Part shown: positions 39,255 through 47,715 of the stretch, one piece after another | Layout: each line of letters opens with the position of its first letter | Numbering within the stretch: the first letter of the stretch is position 1 | IMG/VR virus record: IMGVR_UViG_3300021399_000117 | Span: 32,001 to 96,000 of that record | Origin: a virus | Lineage: Duplodnaviria > Caudoviricetes | Direction: 5' to 3' (one strand) | DNA: 64,000 nt | Notes under the pieces: model-generated | Seen by the model: only the letters and a program-made list of their open reading frames with translations | Told to the model about the DNA's origin: nothing | The model's database searches: none | Program-made: the position numbers and the translations under genes

Positions 39255-39282
39255 AAGAGGGTCTCAAAAAGATCCTCTTTTT
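39255..39282 (+). terminator. Intrinsic terminator
   Basis: AAGAGGGTCT-caaaa-AGATCCTCTTTTT. Confidence 0.7.
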
Positions 39283-39338: not shown

Positions 39339-39370
39339 AGAGGAAATCACTAAAGATTTCCTCTTTTTTT
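39339..39370 (+). repeat. Empty form of the AGAGGAAATC/GATTTCCTCT hairpin (no module)
   Basis: Loop ACTAAA; followed by T-run and TATATAT; same stem at 53161, near-identical at 48722. Confidence 0.85.
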
Positions 39371-39409
39371 ATATATATCTATATGTAGAACATTATTTTG
39401 ATCCTGCAT

Positions 39410-40045
39410 ATGGCAAATTATACTGACAAACAGAAAAACGAACTAACCAAGCAGTACGAACCACTAATCAACAAACTTACCGGCCAGTTTTATACAACCG
39501 TTCAGATGGATTGGGATAGCATCAAGTCCATGGCATACGAAGGATTTGCACTAGCACTCAACAAATACGATGAGTCCAAGAGTAGCATGTCTTTTATGTC
39601 GTTCGCAGCGTTCGAGATGCGTAACAACATCATGACCAGACTCACGGAAGAGGCTCGCACAGTAAAACTACCTTTTGAGGAGCAGAAAAGGCGAAAGGAA
39701 TCAGGAGAACCCTTATTCAACACCGTATCGATCGATCAGAGTGTTCGTGATGACGATGATATCAAACCACGAGAGATCGTGATGGGTATGTACGAGACAG
39801 CCCGATTCGCTGACGGGGATGTCTTCAACTATCTTTACGAACGTCTAGAAGAAAAGTTTCCTCAACGTGAATGCGACATGTTCTATATGTCATTCGGACT
39901 CAAAGGATTCGAAGAGACGCCGAATCAAGACATAGCAAAGAAATTCTGCGTCAGTGAAGGGTTGGTATCCCAAAAGAAACGTAAGATCCTCGATTGGATC
40001 AAAACCGATCAGGATCTGTGTGAGATGTTGTCTAACCTATCATAA
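39410..40045 (+). CDS. Second sigma70-family factor (short, group 3/4-like)
   Basis: YEPLINKL, EGFALALNKYDESK..F.SFA, C-terminal HTH QDIAKKFCVSEGLVSQ. Confidence 0.85.
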   Translation: MANYTDKQKNELTKQYEPLINKLTGQFYTTVQMDWDSIKSMAYEGFALALNKYDESKSSMSFMSFAAFEMRNNIMTRLTEEARTVKLPFEEQKRRKESGEPLFNTVSIDQSVRDDDDIKPREIVMGMYETARFADGDVFNYLYERLEEKFPQRECDMFYMSFGLKGFEETPNQDIAKKFCVSEGLVSQKKRKILDWIKTDQDLCEMLSNLS

Positions 40046-40577: not shown

Positions 40578-41134
40578 GTATAACAGATTTGAAAAACTTC
40601 CCTTTCGAACACGACGGACAAGAGTTCTGGTATAGTCGTTCGATTGTATCCTGCGGATATGTGTTCTGTTACTGGTACAACACCTGGCATGTCCTAGCTG
40701 TCAAACGGGGCGCTACACAAACCCTACCCAAACAATGGAACGTGCCCGGAGGATTCCTGGATCACAACGAGACGACACAGCATGCTGCCAAACGAGAGGT
40801 AGCTGAAGAAACAGGCCTCCCATTAGCTACGCGCGATTTTCATTTGTTCAGTGTCAATTCAACCCCAACAGGTAAGAAACAGCATGTGCTCTTCAACTAC
40901 TACTGTAATATAGGTAAGGTAAAAGAGTTGCCGTATTTGGATCCATCCAATTGTGAACCTGGTGAAGTAGAACACGCTATGTGGATACCTGTAGAAGCCG
41001 TCAAAAAGTTCAAATGGATCAATGCACAGTGGGTGAATATTGAATATGTATTCAACACGTACATTCATCCTAGTCTTTGGCAACGCATTCGTAATCGCCT
41101 AAGTAATCAAATAGATATCGTGTGGGGTATATAA
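40574..41134 (+). CDS. Nudix hydrolase
   Basis: GGFLDHNETTQHAAKREVAEETGL Nudix box. Confidence 0.92.
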   Translation: MSITDLKNFPFEHDGQEFWYSRSIVSCGYVFCYWYNTWHVLAVKRGATQTLPKQWNVPGGFLDHNETTQHAAKREVAEETGLPLATRDFHLFSVNSTPTGKKQHVLFNYYCNIGKVKELPYLDPSNCEPGEVEHAMWIPVEAVKKFKWINAQWVNIEYVFNTYIHPSLWQRIRNRLSNQIDIVWGI

Positions 41135-41181
41135 AACTCTGTACGATTTTTTATATATTTATATGATAATCCATTATATAT

Positions 41182-41775
41182 ATGCAAATCAGAAAAGAGT
41201 TTAGAGTAGAAAGCGCACACATAGTGCGAAACTGCACCTCCGAACGTTGTTCTCATTCGATTCACGGACACAGTGCTGTGATTGAAGTCATCTTCGAAGG
41301 TCGTCAATTGGACAACGCTCAAATGCTCGTAGACTTCGGTTTGATGAAAGGCAGCATCAAGCAGTTTATCGATTCTATGGATCACTGCTATCTGCTCTGT
41401 TCACATGACAAACCTGAGTTCCGTGAGTTTATCAAAAAGAATTGCGATCGATACATTGAGTTGCCGTTCAATCCGAGCGCAGAGATGTTGTCTATGTTCA
41501 TCATGATCGGTGTACAACGTATCTTGGACATGACCGAGTTCAATAACGGTGAAGAAACACCTGTACGAGTAGCAAGTGTTCGTTATCATGAGACCACCAC
41601 GGGTTATGCACAGTGTGATCTAACAGATTGTGTGAACTACGAAAACACCATCGATTTCGATTTCGTTGAGTTCTCTGACGGTGTCAAGAAAGACTGGTCA
41701 CCGGAACTTCGTGAGGCTCTGGAACTAGGTCATCCTATTGTCAATCCAATCGTTGAACGTCAAATTGATCTGTAA
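41182..41775 (+). CDS. queD: 6-carboxy-5,6,7,8-tetrahydropterin synthase QueD
   Basis: ESAH..C..HGH, VDFG, DH, NPSAE, HET. Confidence 0.92.
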   Translation: MQIRKEFRVESAHIVRNCTSERCSHSIHGHSAVIEVIFEGRQLDNAQMLVDFGLMKGSIKQFIDSMDHCYLLCSHDKPEFREFIKKNCDRYIELPFNPSAEMLSMFIMIGVQRILDMTEFNNGEETPVRVASVRYHETTTGYAQCDLTDCVNYENTIDFDFVEFSDGVKKDWSPELREALELGHPIVNPIVERQIDL

Positions 41776-41776
41776 T

Positions 41777-42595
41777 ATGCTGCCAGTAGTAGAAATGTTC
41801 ACTAGTATTCAGGGGGAAGGAAAGTACGCCGGAATACCGAGTCACTTCGTAAGAGTGAGTGGTTGTAATCTTCGCTGTGTCTTTAAGGACAGCGTGTGTG
41901 ACACACCATATTCCTCATTCAAGCCAGAAAAGCCTATCGCCAAAGACCTAGAGGAACTGGTGCGTCTATTCAAAGAACTCCAAGAGAAGTCTCCAAAGGT
42001 TAAACACCTGGTCATTACCGGGGGAGAACCCCTGATGTACGCGAAAGACCTGGATATGTTCCTCCGCCATATCTATGATGACGAGATGGTCATTACCATC
42101 GAAACCAACGGAACCTATCCGGTCCTGAATCCGCTGAGCCCGTACTTCAAGATCGCGCTCTATAGTGTATCTCCGAAACTCGCCACCAGCGTTGGTAAAC
42201 CGGGTATGTACGGCAAGAACGGCAATATCGAAGTCACCCAGCAAATGGTAGACCGTCACAATCAATTGAGGATCGATCCGCAGAACCTGGTAGACATTGT
42301 GATGAACGCCAATGACTATCAGTTCAAGTTCGTGTATAGCGGGCCTGAGTGTGTTGATGAGATTATGGACATCTATTCACGAATGGGTGCTATTGCTGAG
42401 AAGTACGACCCGTTTATGGTCAGCTTCTATTTGAAGAACCACCCCAACAAACACACTATGTTGATGCCAGAGGGTATTACCAATGAGCAACTCGCAGCCA
42501 AACGTCAAGAGATTGCAAATATTTGTATTCAACGGGGATGGACATACACCGATCGTATCCACATCATTATCTGGGGAGATAAGAGAGGGGTGTAA
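41777..42595 (+). CDS. queE: 7-carboxy-7-deazaguanine synthase QueE (radical SAM)
   Basis: EMFTSIQGEG, GCNLRC....CDT, ITGGEP, IETNG, SPKL, KFV, R.H...WG. Confidence 0.93.
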   Translation: MLPVVEMFTSIQGEGKYAGIPSHFVRVSGCNLRCVFKDSVCDTPYSSFKPEKPIAKDLEELVRLFKELQEKSPKVKHLVITGGEPLMYAKDLDMFLRHIYDDEMVITIETNGTYPVLNPLSPYFKIALYSVSPKLATSVGKPGMYGKNGNIEVTQQMVDRHNQLRIDPQNLVDIVMNANDYQFKFVYSGPECVDEIMDIYSRMGAIAEKYDPFMVSFYLKNHPNKHTMLMPEGITNEQLAAKRQEIANICIQRGWTYTDRIHIIIWGDKRGV

Positions 42596-42667: not shown

Positions 42668-43495
42668 ATGAAAACAAACTGTGAATTACCATTATGCATG
42701 ATGGACAAGAATTTGGAATTGAATGATTTCGATTTCGTTTTGTTCCATCTATATCAGTCTAACAAGACCTATCGCGAGTACTATCAGAAGATGAGAGTAG
42801 AACATCCGGAACGACTCATGATCCTGGACAACTCTGCGTACGAGTTCTTCGTCAAAGGAGAAAAACTGGATATGCTCCAATTCAAAAATACCATCAAGGA
42901 ACTCAAGCCGGATTACTACATCTTGCCAGATGTACTCCAAGACAAAGAGAAGACACTGCATGGTGTTCGGGAGTTCTTGACGTGTTATGCGGATAAAGAC
43001 ATGGTGTCCAAACCACTAGCTGTAGCACAAGGTAACACCAGTATAGAATTGGTAGAGTGTTTCCAAGAGTATCTCGGACTGGGTATCGAATATGTAGGAG
43101 TGCCATTTCACTTGGAGTTCTACAAGCACATGCATATAGAAGATGACATCCTGTTCGAGTTTGGAACGTCTTATGGAGAGACAAAATTCACAGACGGTGA
43201 AGACTATAAGTACGCGATAGGTCGTGTTCAGTGGGTGCGTGGACATGAGGAACTGTTGAAACGGTTCGACAAAGTGCATATGCTCGGATCACATTGTCCG
43301 TTGGAGAAAGTATTTTACCACGACTTCTATTCTATGGACACTGGGTATCCAGTCAAATTAGGATACGAGAAGACATTATTAGGATTCGAAGATCACAAAC
43401 CCGCATCTATCATAGATGATTTCATTGATGCGGAGTTGTCTCGCACTAAGAAACACTGCATTGAGTCCAATGTCAAAACATTCCGAGATCTCTGA
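42668..43495 (+). CDS. dpdA: DpdA/TGT-like 7-deazaguanine DNA transglycosylase (putative)
   Basis: ILDNSAYE, LPDV, VAQG, HMLG and SMDT motifs of the TGT barrel; adjacent to queD and queE. Confidence 0.65.
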   Translation: MKTNCELPLCMMDKNLELNDFDFVLFHLYQSNKTYREYYQKMRVEHPERLMILDNSAYEFFVKGEKLDMLQFKNTIKELKPDYYILPDVLQDKEKTLHGVREFLTCYADKDMVSKPLAVAQGNTSIELVECFQEYLGLGIEYVGVPFHLEFYKHMHIEDDILFEFGTSYGETKFTDGEDYKYAIGRVQWVRGHEELLKRFDKVHMLGSHCPLEKVFYHDFYSMDTGYPVKLGYEKTLLGFEDHKPASIIDDFIDAELSRTKKHCIESNVKTFRDL

Positions 43496-43525
43496 TTATT
43501 ATTGTAAAAAAAATATACATATAAT

Positions 43526-45004
43526 ATGAAGTCATTAAAGGATACGATATTGGAACAATTTGATTCGAAACCGACCCTAACCCATACAGGATTTCAAATT
43601 TTGCACCCATTGACTGAATATCTGCTTAATGAAGACAAATATGTCGGCTCTTCTGATCAAGCTATATATGCTCGGTTGGGAATGCACAAATATAATCACT
43701 TGCCCAAAAATAAACAAGAAGAGGTTAAACGGCATTTTCCTGGAGCTCCAGGTAATAAATCTGCTTTGGCCCGATGGTTCAAATCTGTCAATGGCAAATT
43801 AGTACCTAACCAATACGAGTTTATTGGGAGATCTGATTGGAACATGTTAGACCAGATCGGAGAAATCGAAAATTCTTTAATGGCTCCCCACAAATGGTCA
43901 TATTTTGAACTGATTCGGAAAAATCCTAGACCGAAGAAGAACAAGATACTTACTGTTTTGGAATGTTCCAATTCTAAACCATATTGTCAGGATTCTGCAA
44001 AAAAGTGGTACTTTAAACGGTTCAGATCGTTTACCGATTTTGCTTGCGGCGCGTATGGTATAGTACCGGAAGAATATTCACAATTGTATCCGGTACGTGA
44101 GGATGAATGGGCACATAGCGATGAGTCGGAATCTGTAGCATTCAAATACAATTTGATTTCCTGTAACCGTGGGTATCAATATATCAAAGATATGGGTTAC
44201 GAGAAGGTGATTGTATTCTTCCAAAATCCTGCGCCAGAGGAGTTCATGCGATGGATGAAAAATATGCCCGGCATGGAGGATAAACTGATCTTCGTCATTA
44301 CTCCGCAATTAGTGGACAAACTTAAAAAACATTACCCTCAATTAGGTAACGGTCTAATCATCACACGAATGATGATGCTCTCAGAGGTTCATGAGGCATA
44401 TATGAATGCTTTAAGCAAGTGTTTGTCCGGTGAGGATCGAGAAAGGTTTAACGAGATCAAAAAACTGGTCAATGACGAGGATAAAACTGGTCAAAAGAAG
44501 TGGATTGAGGATACCAACCAAAAATTCGGAATCGAGGAATACCGGGTAGACAGACCAGGCTGGGAGGTAAAACTTGCTAAAGGTGATATAAATATACACA
44601 GTCGTACATCAGATGTAACACAGAAAAAAGTCGATGAGATTTCTAATTGGATTTCGTCCTGGGTTGAAAAACAAAACGAAAAAGACATCAAAAAAGACAA
44701 GATAGACTGGTACAAAGAACGTCTGATATTTACCCCGCTAGATCTTATCATCGATCATTACGAACTGGGAGAGAAGAATCCAAAAAAATTGGATATCGAC
44801 GAGGAGTATTGGAACGTGATGGCTGCGCTAGAAAAACACGCTCAAGAATGGGGTATAAAAAGGGTCAACCCTGATAAGTATCACAGATATGATTATTTGT
44901 GGTGTTTCGAAAGGGTGTGCAAAGAGGTTAAAAAAGATGATATGATCGAATATTGCGACAAAACTGGCTTGTCCCAATTTTATCAAAATGTATTAGACAG
45001 ATAA
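43526..45004 (+). CDS. ArcS-like (DUF5591-type domain) protein with capsid-targeting-like leader
   Basis: VLECSNSKPY and YGIVPEEYSQLYP resemble ArcS LPCS..KPY and LGIVPRELE..YP; leader MKSLKDTILE. Confidence 0.6.
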   Translation: MKSLKDTILEQFDSKPTLTHTGFQILHPLTEYLLNEDKYVGSSDQAIYARLGMHKYNHLPKNKQEEVKRHFPGAPGNKSALARWFKSVNGKLVPNQYEFIGRSDWNMLDQIGEIENSLMAPHKWSYFELIRKNPRPKKNKILTVLECSNSKPYCQDSAKKWYFKRFRSFTDFACGAYGIVPEEYSQLYPVREDEWAHSDESESVAFKYNLISCNRGYQYIKDMGYEKVIVFFQNPAPEEFMRWMKNMPGMEDKLIFVITPQLVDKLKKHYPQLGNGLIITRMMMLSEVHEAYMNALSKCLSGEDRERFNEIKKLVNDEDKTGQKKWIEDTNQKFGIEEYRVDRPGWEVKLAKGDINIHSRTSDVTQKKVDEISNWISSWVEKQNEKDIKKDKIDWYKERLIFTPLDLIIDHYELGEKNPKKLDIDEEYWNVMAALEKHAQEWGIKRVNPDKYHRYDYLWCFERVCKEVKKDDMIEYCDKTGLSQFYQNVLDR

Positions 45005-45558
45005 TGAGAAACCTTTACGAAAGCATATTAGATGACGAATTGGATGTCATGGCTAAAGGTGATAAGGGTGGAGAGCGTTTGCTTCATGCATATGACATGA
45101 TGAAGATGTTGGTAGATCATCTGGATATCGTTCGCAAGGAGGGTGCTGATGACCCAACACAAACATCATACAAGTGCCCACTGTACTTCAAATTCAGAAA
45201 TGGATTGAATGATCCGTTCGGAACGGTTCGTAAGCGCCTCGCGGACTTCAAGAACGATATGAAGAAGTATCCTGAGTTCAAGATAAACATTCATACTACC
45301 AGCAAGAAGGAATCCATGACTACACCAGGTCAGAGACGGGAGTATGGCGTGGGTCTGATGTATAATCTCATTAAGAGATACAATATCGCGATCGAAGAAG
45401 GCAAAAAGATGTTCGGTACTATCGATATCACAATCGAACAGTACGACTTCAACAAAGAACTACACGCCTCTAAGATGAACATATATGTTATGGCAAGTGG
45501 GTTCGATTACAGAGACCTATACCGGGTTATACTAGACCAAATGGATAGCAAAAAATGA
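45004..45558 (+). CDS. Hypothetical protein with MRNLYESILDD leader
   Basis: Start at 45004 overlaps the previous TAA; leader motif. Confidence 0.7.
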   Translation: MRNLYESILDDELDVMAKGDKGGERLLHAYDMMKMLVDHLDIVRKEGADDPTQTSYKCPLYFKFRNGLNDPFGTVRKRLADFKNDMKKYPEFKINIHTTSKKESMTTPGQRREYGVGLMYNLIKRYNIAIEEGKKMFGTIDITIEQYDFNKELHASKMNIYVMASGFDYRDLYRVILDQMDSKK

Positions 45559-45567
45559 TATATCAAT

Positions 45568-45888
45568 ATGAAAGGACTTTCAGAGACACTTAAGGAATCA
45601 CTCGAAGTGAATGAAGCCAAGCAGGTGCTTGCAAATACGATTCAGTGGGAGGCAGATAAGGATGCAGCATACACCACTCTCGACGCAGCTGACGGCATCA
45701 AGAAGTTCAAGCATGCATTCCTTTCTTATAACCAATACGAAGGTGCCATCTTCGTAGTTGCGTTCAATTCAATCGAGGCTTACCAAGAGCTACTCGACAC
45801 GGATGATGATGAGTACTCAGAACTCCTCAGTATGAAACCACAGGATACTAAGGTAATCAATAACGTATCCTATATCTGTCTAAAATAA
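45568..45888 (+). CDS. Hypothetical protein with MKGLSETLKESLEVNE leader
   Basis: Leader motif. Confidence 0.7.
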   Translation: MKGLSETLKESLEVNEAKQVLANTIQWEADKDAAYTTLDAADGIKKFKHAFLSYNQYEGAIFVVAFNSIEAYQELLDTDDDEYSELLSMKPQDTKVINNVSYICLK

Positions 45889-45896
45889 GGAAGAAC

Positions 45897-46064
45897 ATGG
45901 CATACAAGATTACTGACAATTGCGTAGCCTGTGGAACCTGCGCAGAGAATTGCCCGATGGGTGCTATCGAAGAGAAGGAAGCTGGCAAGTACGTCATCGA
46001 CCCTGAGATGTGCACCGAGTGCAGAACCTGCCTAGACGGTTGCCCTGCAAACGCAATCAAATAA
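45897..46064 (+). CDS. fdx: 2[4Fe-4S] clostridial-type ferredoxin (55 aa), not in ORF track
   Basis: MAYKITDNCVACGTCAENCPMGAI...CTECRTCLDGCPANAIK: two CxxCxxCxxxCP motifs. Confidence 0.93.
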   Translation: MAYKITDNCVACGTCAENCPMGAIEEKEAGKYVIDPEMCTECRTCLDGCPANAIK

Positions 46065-46090
46065 GGAGTCAATAAAGATTGGCTCCTTTT
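46063..46090 (+). terminator. Intrinsic terminator
   Basis: AAGGAGTCAAT-aaag-ATTGGCTCCTTTT. Confidence 0.65.
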
Positions 46091-46125
46091 CTTATATATT
46101 ATGATATACACAAAACTAATTAGAC

Positions 46126-47082
46126 ATGAACAAAGACGTAAAAGTATTAGACCTTACAAGAGGTTACGACGAGAACTTCGTACCTTCTCAACAGTACCTC
46201 GACTCTATGCCGGACCTGCAGAACGGTGAGTATAGTGATATTCCGATTGATTTCGTGGGTATTCAAAACTTCCATTTGCCACTCAAGGTAATCCAAAAGG
46301 ATGGTAACATTCAAGAGGTCAAAGCAAGCATCACTGGTACGGTATCTCTCGAGGCCGAGAAACGAGGAATCAACATGTCTCGTATCATTCGCACGTTCTA
46401 TAAGTCCAAAGACGATGTATTCAGCTGTGATCATCTGGAGAATGTCCTTCGCGCGTACAAGAAAGACTTAGATACTTTCGATGCACACATCCTTATGAAC
46501 TTTAGCTATTATCTCTGGCAAGACGCACTTCGTTCAGTCAAGGAGGACGGTACGCCTGAGGGAGGCTACCAGTACTACAACATCACGTTCGATGTCAATC
46601 TCGATAAGTCCGGTGAGTTCAAGAAGATCATGTGGGTGGATTTTGTTTACAGTTCAGCATGTCCTTGCTCTACAGAACTTTCTCAACATGCAGCACTGGA
46701 GCGCGGTGTCTATGGTATTCCTCACAGTCAGCGTTCGATAGCTCGTATCGGAATGGAGTACACCGGGGATCTATGGATCGAAGATGTCATTGATGCATGT
46801 CGAGCCGCACTTACCACAGAGACATTGGTATTCTGCAAGCGCCAGGACGAACAAGCATTCGCGGAGAAGAATGGTGCGCAGACTAAGTTCGTTGAGGACG
46901 CTATTCGTTATTTGAAACACGAACTGGATAAAAACCCAGTTATTCGAGATTACAAAATCATATGTTCTCATCAAGAAAGCTTACATAGTCACAACGCCGT
47001 CGCTGTTACCACCAAGGGGTTGAAAAATTCAATCTTCAACCATCACGTAACATTAGGTGAATGGAACAGTATGATGGTATGA
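46126..47082 (+). CDS. folE2: GTP cyclohydrolase IB
   Basis: PDLQN, VGI, RGINMSR, SACPCS, PHSQRS, KRQDEQ, FVED, ESLHSHNA. Confidence 0.93.
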   Translation: MNKDVKVLDLTRGYDENFVPSQQYLDSMPDLQNGEYSDIPIDFVGIQNFHLPLKVIQKDGNIQEVKASITGTVSLEAEKRGINMSRIIRTFYKSKDDVFSCDHLENVLRAYKKDLDTFDAHILMNFSYYLWQDALRSVKEDGTPEGGYQYYNITFDVNLDKSGEFKKIMWVDFVYSSACPCSTELSQHAALERGVYGIPHSQRSIARIGMEYTGDLWIEDVIDACRAALTTETLVFCKRQDEQAFAEKNGAQTKFVEDAIRYLKHELDKNPVIRDYKIICSHQESLHSHNAVAVTTKGLKNSIFNHHVTLGEWNSMMV

Positions 47083-47106
47083 TTATTGTATAAAAAAACA
47101 CAATCT

Positions 47107-47715
47107 ATGAAAAATTTAAGCGACTGCATTAAAGAATCGATCAACGAAAGTTCTAATAAAATGACAGCCATTTGGTCCCACGAAGATCCGGATACTATAT
47201 ATTTTATCAAAAATATGTCCAGAGACCAATACAAGCGCCTTCGGAATACAGATTGGAACTGGGACGACATTGATGTAAAAGAGCCTATCGCATTCTGCGG
47301 ACACAATGACGAATCAATTCGAATAACTGGCGTTGCTGCATCTAATTTGGTTGGTCTCAAAAAATTGATCTCCAAAGACATCGCACAAAACATTCAGGAG
47401 ATGATCGATGCTGGAGAAGTGTACGATGAAGTTATATTCTATTCACTGGACGAGGACGAATGGAGCCTCAAAGATTTTCGCGATGCTAAAGAGGTTGAAG
47501 ATCTTAAGAAGATCAACCCAGATCGTGCTGCTGAAAAATGGTTGAAAGGCCTAGAAGACACCGAGGTGGACGGAGATAGTTCACGCGCATACTATTTTGT
47601 AGATCTCAGAAAAGGTGAACAGATCGCTGGTAGCGAACATATAAGTGTTGTGTTTGCTGACCTTGAAGAAGATGAAGATATACGTCATAGCATCCTTGGG
47701 TATGACGAAGACTAA
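47107..47715 (+). CDS. Acidic hypothetical protein with MKNLSDCIKESINE leader
   Basis: Leader motif; TTATTGT variant upstream. Confidence 0.7.
   Translation: MKNLSDCIKESINESSNKMTAIWSHEDPDTIYFIKNMSRDQYKRLRNTDWNWDDIDVKEPIAFCGHNDESIRITGVAASNLVGLKKLISKDIAQNIQEMIDAGEVYDEVIFYSLDEDEWSLKDFRDAKEVEDLKKINPDRAAEKWLKGLEDTEVDGDSSRAYYFVDLRKGEQIAGSEHISVVFADLEEDEDIRHSILGYDED

Follow-up and report, generated by a model that had tools for sequence, protein, structure and literature searches.

Modification of DNA with 7-deazaguanines is a major anti-restriction strategy of phages, and the enzymes responsible have so far been treated as cytoplasmic proteins that act before the genome is packaged. The locus described here raises the question of whether one such enzyme might travel inside the phage head. 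In a stretch of 64,000 nucleotides (hereafter the window), which comprises bases 32001-96000 of the 131,565-bp IMG/VR virus contig IMGVR_UViG_3300021399_000117, an ORF of 492 aa (the arcS-like gene) encodes a protein related to the ArcS2 enzymes of phages. The protein opens with a short peptide that recurs at the N-termini of unrelated proteins of the same phage, and its gene is preceded by TTATTAT, a heptamer otherwise found before structural genes. The evidence set out below makes an ArcS2-type role for this protein likely, and leaves roughly even chances that the peptide is a capsid-targeting and processing signal and the enzyme a cargo of the prohead.

The phage is T4-like and uncultured. 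Its contig, to which all coordinates marked 'genome' refer, has a G+C content of 41.5 % and a CheckV completeness of 62 %; every genome-wide count or absence reported here therefore concerns a partial genome of 131.5 kb, from which a simple ORF call yielded 161 proteins. The major capsid protein (genome 124121-125842) shares 30-38 % identity with those of jumbo phages of Bacteroidota and other hosts, including Tenacibaculum phages pT24 and PTm1, the Prevotella Lak phages and Sphingomonas phage PAU, and the phage DNA is near-identical to one animal gut metagenome contig, which may represent where it came from. Below, L004 and L005 denote other parts of the same genome, L006-L013 and L019 contigs of relatives, and P numbers metagenome proteins.

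A preliminary description of this stretch had recognized ArcS/DUF5591-like motifs in the 492-aa ORF, and both were found again, ECSNSKPY at residues 146-153 (window 43961-43984) and GIVPEE..LYP at residues 178-189 (44057-44092). The protein has 22 homologues with 46-67 % identity and lengths of 306-484 aa, every one of them from metagenome assemblies, and all 18 of the 18 aligned family members matched Pfam DUF5591 (best E-value 3.4e-7). A family profile searched against 1.84 billion representatives retrieved only 119 clusters, amongst which were stand-alone DUF5591 proteins of ~270 aa that pass the Pfam cut-off (those that pass score 32-71 bits); the short homologues span profile positions 17-290. 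The same search reached fusions of radical-SAM and DUF5591 domains carrying the complete ArcS C1 motif, PC-x3-KPY-x2-S-x2-H; three of these (P0113, P0114 and P0136) are natural fusions that between them show both domain orders, and such proteins may combine in one chain what ArcS and RaSEA do as a pair. The signature C-x3-KPY was present in 119 of the 139 sequences compared, including all full-length family members, and twelve columns of the family alignment were invariant (C147, S150, K151, P152, Y153, G178, P181, E183, Y184, S185, Y188 and P189). Cys147, KPY and G-x-x-P-E-E are unchanged over wide divergence, as would befit an active site.

The predicted structure agrees with this assignment. 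An AlphaFold2 model of the query (mean predicted local distance difference test, pLDDT, 81; predicted template modelling score, pTM, 0.83) superimposed on AF0587 (2q07_A) with a Z-score of 9.5 and a root-mean-square deviation of 2.7 over 141 aligned residues (model range 124-351), the next match having a Z-score of 4.8; Foldseek returned 2q07 with a probability of 1.00 and an E-value of 7.6e-3. We take AF0587 to be an ArcS-type protein, the title of its entry reading 'unknown function'. The ArcS-like fold on which the preliminary description had made its proposal depend is thus present, in the form of the C1/DUF5591 fold. When folded alone, the C-terminal domain gave a pLDDT of 87 and its top matches were almost all winged-helix nucleic-acid-binding domains (Z-scores of 4-6.1), whilst a protein atlas search with this part gave no usable match. 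Furthermore, the 492-aa protein had no tblastn match at 1e-5 among 50,697 phage records, was assigned to no PHROGs family and retrieved nothing at E-values up to 1 when a sequence profile was run against PDB chains. Nor did the family alignment find a relative when IMG/VR viral contigs were scanned with it, and close relatives are limited to metagenome assemblies. Judged by its sequence, the protein is a divergent long form of phage ArcS2, and we consider it likely that it acts as a deazaguanine enzyme of this type, adding an amine to DNA-bound dPreQ0, the deoxynucleoside of 7-cyano-7-deazaguanine (preQ0).

The surrounding genes point in the same direction. The transglycosylase encoded directly upstream shares 26-28 % identity with the 'DNA guanine transglycosylase' of Flavobacterium phage immuto_2-6A and with a protein of Campylobacter phage CP220, two phages that have both been reported to be fully modified. 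With queD, queE and folE2 in the window and queC elsewhere in the genome (at genome 111107), the set of preQ0 pathway genes is complete, and a DNA transglycosylase is present as well. No RaSEA candidate was found in the 131.5-kb fragment, in which queE is the sole match to the radical-SAM family. The gene for a small ferredoxin that closes the arcS-like sub-operon could supply a reductant for QueE or for some radical step as yet unknown. The order queD-queE-dpdA-arcS-like, followed at a distance by folE2, is kept in L006/L007 and L012, and the gene of one distant homologue adjoins a PTPS (queD) gene. In L010, L011 and L013 the arcS-like gene stands outside the que cluster: in the first two the tagged orthologue has gp2 and terminase genes nearby or as direct neighbours, it adjoins gp2 on the contig of P0048 as well, and in L013 its neighbour is a RuvC-like gene. 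The gp2 neighbourhoods in question (L010:8009-11413 and L011:8990-13380) contain a homologue of T4 gp2 (Pfam Phage_T4_gp2).

Four observations weaken the enzymatic assignment. The query alone scores 24.8 bits against DUF5591 (PF17884; E-value 2.2e-5, residues 126-196), below the curated cut-off of 26. Its motif reads E-C-SNS-KPY-CQ-D-SA-K, in which the Cys and KPY of the ArcS C1 motif, PC-X3-KPY-X2-S-X2-H (PMC10516641), are kept and the P, S and H positions are replaced, a loss common to most stand-alone phage-type DUF5591 proteins. No Z-score behind the winged-helix assignment exceeds 6.1, which is not decisive. Finally, the validated ArcS2 of Vibrio phage nt-1 aligned with the present family only marginally (hhalign E-value 0.077) and had no tblastn match at 1e-5. 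One might accordingly suppose that the DUF5591 scaffold has been recruited for another task, either as an enzyme acting on RNA, tRNA or a free base, or as a non-catalytic binder of modified DNA that is delivered with it. The three altered motif positions, the large extra domains of unknown function and the location of the gene outside the que cluster in three relatives would suit such a change; moreover, what ArcS homologues do in phages was still described as unclear in 2019, and the ArcS-encoding STSV-2 carries 2'-deoxy-7-carboxy-7-deazaguanosine (dCDG) and not 2'-deoxyarchaeosine (dG+). The invariance of Cys147, KPY and G-x-x-P-E-E is, however, what an active site would show, and the gene adjoins dpdA both here and in two relatives, and queD in a distant one. 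Additionally, the minimal substrate of Thermococcus kodakarensis ArcS is a bare preQ0 nucleoside 5'-phosphate (PMC11298593), which makes a DNA-borne substrate chemically plausible. We regard recruitment to a different task as very improbable.

The N-terminus is the second unusual property of this protein. The preliminary description had it start with MKSLKDTILE, followed by LTEYLLNE; these stretches are indeed found at residues 1-10 and 29-36. Codon 26 is TTG, and in at least 90 % of the aligned orthologues the start Met falls at this position. There the orthologues begin with tags of their own, such as MKTLVEYIFED, MISLYNFIFED, MKDLYTYLCED and MQHLYDYICED, each followed by a conserved xVGSSD. 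The query has 25 extra codons upstream of residue 26, which open with a second and better tag, and on the strength of this alignment the window protein carries two tags in tandem. The first three residues of the older one have decayed, from M-K-S to L-H-P, as would be expected had it been superseded by the new N-terminal copy. In the AlphaFold2 model residues 1-25 have a pLDDT below 50, which fits the expectation for a detachable peptide. At the DNA level there was no sign that the new tag had been copied from another gene (blastn-short, first 120 nucleotides against the genome).

Most orthologues have kept the tag, including ones of low identity, and many distant homologues bear one as well (MKTLQDFILE, MKSLYTFITE, MKSLSEYICE, MKNLSSLISE), whilst others begin right at the conserved core SDxxLYYRLG without it; presence on many homologues and absence from others indicates a modular addition to the enzyme. 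The contigs of the untagged homologues are short (1.6-4 kb), and the untagged class is in part an artefact of gene calling or assembly. At L019:685-760, for instance, P0037 had been called from a TTG as 'untagged', but TTATTAT and an ORF start, MKTTLKDYIIES, are present 55 nucleotides upstream in another frame, so that the frameshift is either real or due to the assembly.

As orthologues of 440-484 aa start at the position of codon 26, and the TTG there is a usable start, the 25-residue extension might remain untranslated, the true product being a protein of 467 aa that begins at 43601 and MKSLKDTILE a chance or vestigial stretch in the 5' leader of the mRNA. In L008/L009 a similar in-frame stretch lies upstream, opening with GTG on one contig and with ATG on the other, and is probably untranslated there; one RNA-library contig, moreover, begins at 43557, between the two candidate starts. 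The ends of low-depth contigs are arbitrary, however, and another contig covers part of 43308-43541. The ATG at 43526 lies 30 nucleotides after TTATTAT, inside the range of 13-57 nucleotides seen elsewhere in the genome, as against 105 nucleotides for the TTG. The opening residues of the extension also match in full a pattern seldom met other than at N-termini, and the first residues of the old tag have decayed, as if superseded. We thus consider a start at TTG improbable; with either start, the protein keeps a tag-like N-terminus ending in L-N-E.

Tags of this kind occur throughout the genome. The pattern M[KRQ][STNGQ][LI] opens 23 of the 161 ORFs, as compared with 6 of 998 internal Met positions, and the consensus of the tag is M-K-S-L-[SY]-E-[YS]-[IL]-L-E. 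By BLASTP the tagged proteins are mutually unrelated, save for two similar pairs, one of which is similar solely over the tag. The copies use both AGY and TCN codons for Ser and four different codons for Leu, a variety that indicates selection at the level of the peptide. A run of six tagged genes stops shortly before genome 101200, separated by a single gene from that for a prohead protease, and five more surround a gp13-like neck gene; in relatives, further proteins are marked with this tag (MKTLYESLLDDE, for instance). None of the other deazaguanine-pathway enzymes is tagged, leaving the arcS-like gene as the sole tagged member of the pathway. Another carrier is a nucleoside diphosphate kinase, NDK (Pfam NDK, E-value 8e-21; L004:11836-12264, genome 107836-108264), in which an 18-residue N-terminal extension opens with the tag MMKQLSAYLLEN. 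Literature searches with the tag strings found no relevant paper. We also considered a clamp-binding (PIP-box) function for the Q-L-S-x-Y-L variants of the tag, but dropped it on account of the ill-fitting spacing and the confinement of the motif to N-termini.

The protease just mentioned belongs to the T4 gp21 family (genome 102922-104349; Peptidase_S77, 35.9 bits, above the cut-off; PHROG 'head maturation protease', E-value 2.5e-37). It is a 475-aa fusion of Peptidase_S77 and PF20034 (L004:6922-8349), and its family has more than 2,400 metagenome members on contigs of up to ~237 kb. Immediately after the protease domain the family has an invariant L164-N165-E166, the same ending as that of tag 2 and of many other tags, and this is likely to be a site of self-cleavage. 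The protease would presumably cut after (I/L)-x-E. A complex prediction combining residues 1-175 of the protease with the first 60 residues of the enzyme scored 0.00 and is evidence neither for nor against an interaction.

We turn now to the heptamer upstream of the gene. The preliminary description had placed TTATTAT at 43496 and TATATAT before the que and folE2 genes; the first was confirmed at 43496-43502 and the second at 41152, 41175 and 41177 (queD) and at 46093 (folE2). TTATTAT occurs 59 times in the genome, with 31 copies in the intergenic 7.6 % and 26 within 60 nucleotides before a start on the same strand. In the 66 nucleotides before gene starts it is the second commonest 7-mer, precedes 25 genes in the sense and 6 in the antisense orientation, and is 2-6 times commoner than 7-mers of the same composition. 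It stands 13-57 nucleotides before the genes for the major capsid protein, prohead protease, tail sheath, a fibre-like protein and head closure, whilst TATATAT precedes replication-type genes, a sigma-like gene, queD and folE2. Tagged genes are associated with TTATTAT rather than TATATAT in a ratio of 16:4, as compared with 32:76 for untagged genes (Fisher p 6e-5, with two overlapping sites reassigned by hand; uncorrected, the tagged genes split 14:6, p 9e-4). Given the counts for both tag and heptamer, the elements listed here are not due to chance. A late-type promoter of its own had been claimed for the arcS-like gene; this stands in so far as its upstream heptamer, a putative promoter, is one that elsewhere accompanies structural genes. 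Two paralogous sigma-factor-like genes (window 39398-40045 and L005:14512-15537, genome 130512-131537; 26.6 % identity over 203 aa) are candidate readers of TATATAT and TTATTAT.

Two further arrangements of these motifs were seen in the window. The sequence TGA-TTATTGT-ataaaaaaa at 47083-47089, before a tagged ORF (47107-47715) that lies 3' of folE2, is a one-mismatch copy of TGA-TTATTAT-tgtaaaaaaaa at 43493-43512, and both cassettes overlap the stop codon of the preceding pathway gene. A hairpin, a T-run and TATATAT are combined at 41117-41158, 46063-46099, 39255-39279 and 39339-39364, a cassette that ends one transcription unit and starts the next.

The same description had also suggested that the last modification step is separated in time from the others, and this did not hold up: the gene begins 30 nucleotides 3' of dpdA, within the unit that starts at the TATATAT of queD, and no terminator-like hairpin lies between the two genes, the + strand of the region having only those at 41117-41147 and 46063-46088. 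Read-through from the queD promoter is therefore to be expected, with TTATTAT as an additional internal start. Metatranscriptome contigs from two studies cover the arcS-like gene at 100 % identity. In the RNA library from the source sample, the contig starts at 41196, 43557 and 46131 each follow closely on one of the three promoter-like sites, but these contigs record presence only, and not transcript start, strand or level, so that uncovered parts such as 40734-41195 provide no evidence.

Taken together, these elements suggest the following scheme. FolE2, QueD, QueE and QueC would make preQ0, which the DpdA-type transglycosylase would exchange for G in the phage DNA. The DUF5591 core would then attach an amine to the nitrile group of dPreQ0 in the DNA, probably via Cys147 beside K151-P-Y153, to give dG+ or a substituted amidine, with the C-terminal winged-helix-like domain probably holding the DNA in the place where archaeal ArcS has an RNA-binding PUA domain. 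TTATTAT would provide a burst of expression alongside the head genes, on top of read-through from the que promoter. The 10-residue amphipathic tag, M-K-S-L-x-E-x-(I/L)-x-E, would most likely act in the manner of the T4 capsid-targeting sequence (CTS) and bring the protein into the assembling prohead, where the protease would cut after (I/L)-x-E, at E10 and/or E36, leaving a mature N-terminus of DKYVGSSD. The capsid-type leader proposed in the preliminary description is borne out as an N-terminal tag that recurs genome-wide, and we put the chances that it targets the enzyme to the prohead and is processed there at about even. Should the enzyme be packaged, it could act in the capsid or right after injection, finishing the conversion of dPreQ0 to the amidine on packaged or ejected DNA or shielding deazaguanine bases from host defences. 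As some ArcS enzymes are reported to take NH4+ as nitrogen donor, finishing the conversion at that stage is conceivable, but we hold such an activity in the head or the newly infected cell to be rather doubtful.

Several of the observations count against packaging. NDK, an amidohydrolase and a protein with a weak HAD-like match are amongst the tag carriers, and such housekeeping-type proteins would be an unusual cargo. Of six distinct relatives, three have TTATTAT ahead of the orthologue (L006/L007, L008/L009 and L010) and three lack it (L011, L012 and L013), and late-only expression of the arcS-like gene does not follow from the sequence. Furthermore, the validated nt-1 ArcS2, also from a T4-like phage, is untagged. 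Such carriers and the untagged nt-1 enzyme would agree with the same ArcS2-type enzyme working in the cytoplasm only, the tag serving as a signal for docking, assembly or turnover that, for instance, gathers enzymes at a replication or nucleotide-supply complex or marks proteins for regulated proteolysis. TTATTAT would in that case keep the enzyme abundant during DNA synthesis and packaging; the co-orientation of the gene with the que genes, from which nothing insulates it, is in keeping with this, as is the resemblance of the carriers named above to metabolic or repair enzymes and not to classical internal proteins. The strictly N-terminal position of the tag, its (I/L)-x-E ending and its likeness to the T4 CTS are nevertheless better explained by capsid targeting, as are the presence of a T4-type protease, the enrichment of tagged genes behind the structural-gene motif and their clustering by head genes. 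No alternative receptor was identified, and a maturase-type version of the cytoplasmic explanation lacks a candidate enzyme, queE being the sole radical-SAM gene of the 131.5-kb fragment. A purely cytoplasmic enzyme is accordingly the less probable explanation, but one to be taken seriously.

If the tag does target the enzyme to the head, part of the modification machinery would be delivered along with the genome, with a bearing on survival in the first minutes of infection; if the enzyme also works in the capsid or after injection, it would be the first packaged base-hypermodification enzyme, and the final chemistry of the DNA would be a property of the virion too. Alternatively, the M-K-x-L-x-E-x-I-x-E tags of T4-like, Bacteroidota-type jumbo phages may serve for something other than capsid targeting. 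The coordinates of the features discussed are collected in Table 1.

Table 1. Features of the arcS-like locus, in window coordinates
Feature	Position	Strand	Basis or remark
Terminator-like hairpin (41117-41147) followed by TATATAT; start of que unit	41117-41158	+	Hairpin and motif scan
queD (PTPS)	41182-41775	+	Pfam PTPS
queE (radical SAM)	41777-42595	+	Pfam Radical_SAM
DpdA-type DNA transglycosylase, 275 aa	42668-43495	+	Directly 5' of arcS-like gene
TTATTAT, structural-gene (late-type) motif	43496-43502	+	Right after dpdA TGA stop, 30 nucleotides before ATG
ORF for tagged long-form ArcS2-like (DUF5591) enzyme, 492 aa	43526-45004	+	ATG start, Pfam, alignment, model
Tag 1, MKSLKDTILE, residues 1-10	43526-43555	+	Ends I-L-E, fits (I/L)-x-E
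Tag 2, ancestral N-terminus, residues 26-36, L-HPLTEYLLNE	43601-43633	+	Ends L-N-E, then DKYVGSSD
N-terminal helical region, residues 37-125	43634-43900	+	Common to ~270-aa stand-alone DUF5591 proteins
DUF5591/ArcS C1 core, residues ~126-300	43901-44425	+	C147-x3-K151-P-Y153, G178-x-x-P-E-E
Extra C-terminal domain, residues ~300-492	44423-45001	+	~190 aa beyond short forms
Possible winged-helix-like part of C-terminal domain, residues ~365-465	44618-44920	+	Suggested by weak fold matches
Tagged ORF MRNLYESILDDE	45004-45558	+	Same unit, 3' of arcS-like gene
Tagged ORF MKGLSETLKE	45568-45888	+	Same unit
4Fe-4S ferredoxin, 55 aa, 2x[4Fe-4S]-type	45897-46064	+	Last gene of arcS-like sub-operon
Terminator-like hairpin, end of que unit	46063-46088	+	Hairpin scan
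folE2 (GTP cyclohydrolase I type 2)	46126-47082	+	Pfam; own TATATAT at 46093

The closest characterized counterpart is the ArcS2 of Vibrio phage nt-1 (VPFG_00169; Hutinet et al. 2019, 2023; PMC6884629, PMC10516641), which, when co-expressed with DpdA2, gave rise to dG+ in Escherichia coli DNA (PMC10516641). Like the window protein it has a DUF5591 core without the archaeal TGT-like and PUA domains, the motifs C-x3-[KR]PY and G-[IV]-[IV]-P (C-TTT-RPY and G-V-I-P-Q-Q in nt-1) and a gene located among those for preQ0 synthesis in a T4-like phage with DpdA. It differs in being 226 aa long, in contrast to the 492 aa found here, and in having no tag, no helical N-region of ~85 aa and no C-terminal domain of ~190 aa. 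The present family thus offers a second, very different phage ArcS2 for comparison with the weakly active nt-1 enzyme, in a long form where a possible DNA-binding winged-helix domain would replace the archaeal PUA. Archaeal ArcS (TgtA2; Thermococcus kodakarensis, PMC11298593) shares the C1 catalytic fold with its Cys...KPY core and, if the proposal made here for the phage enzyme is right, the chemistry on the nitrile of polymer-bound preQ0. It differs in its tRNA substrate, in its Nt, C2 and PUA domains, in its full PC-x3-KPY-x2-S-x2-H motif and in transferring lysine, which requires the radical-SAM protein RaSEA to finish G+; the 131.5-kb fragment contains no RaSEA-like gene.

For the tag, the obvious parallel is the T4 CTS, MKTYQEFIAE, which is cut once by gp21 and suffices to load foreign proteins (PMC8442874, PMC5694885). 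Both are N-terminal peptides of ~10 residues that are common to unrelated proteins (IPI-III and Alt in T4), start with M-K-(T/S), have E6, I8 and E10 and end in (I/L)-x-E, so that the T4 sequence and the consensus found here have the same residues at positions 1, 2, 6, 8 and 10; in both phages a protease of the Peptidase_S77 family is encoded. The T4 cargo Alt is moreover an enzyme, as proposed for the cargo here. T4 differs in tagging few proteins, as against ~23 of 161 ORFs, many of them enzymes, in the present genome, and in that the function of its tag is established by experiment, whilst that of the present one is suggested by the parallel. In the literature searched, no DNA base-tailoring enzyme was reported as a CTS cargo. 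A functional parallel is provided by DarB of phage P1, a 250-kDa Dar protein that is packaged in the head by virtue of a signal occupying fewer than 30 N-terminal residues (PMC9024508). It, too, is a DNA-protection enzyme with an N-terminal capsid-targeting signal, located in the head and believed to enter the cell with the DNA, but protein, tag and phage are unrelated to those described here, and DarB counters type I restriction and has no link to 7-deazaguanine. Each of the three elements, a phage ArcS2, the T4 CTS and, in P1 DarB, an anti-restriction enzyme packaged by means of an N-terminal signal, was thus already known; what is new is a long ArcS2 family that bears a tag, the fact that this tag has been conserved and renewed, and the coupling of the family to a structural-gene motif.

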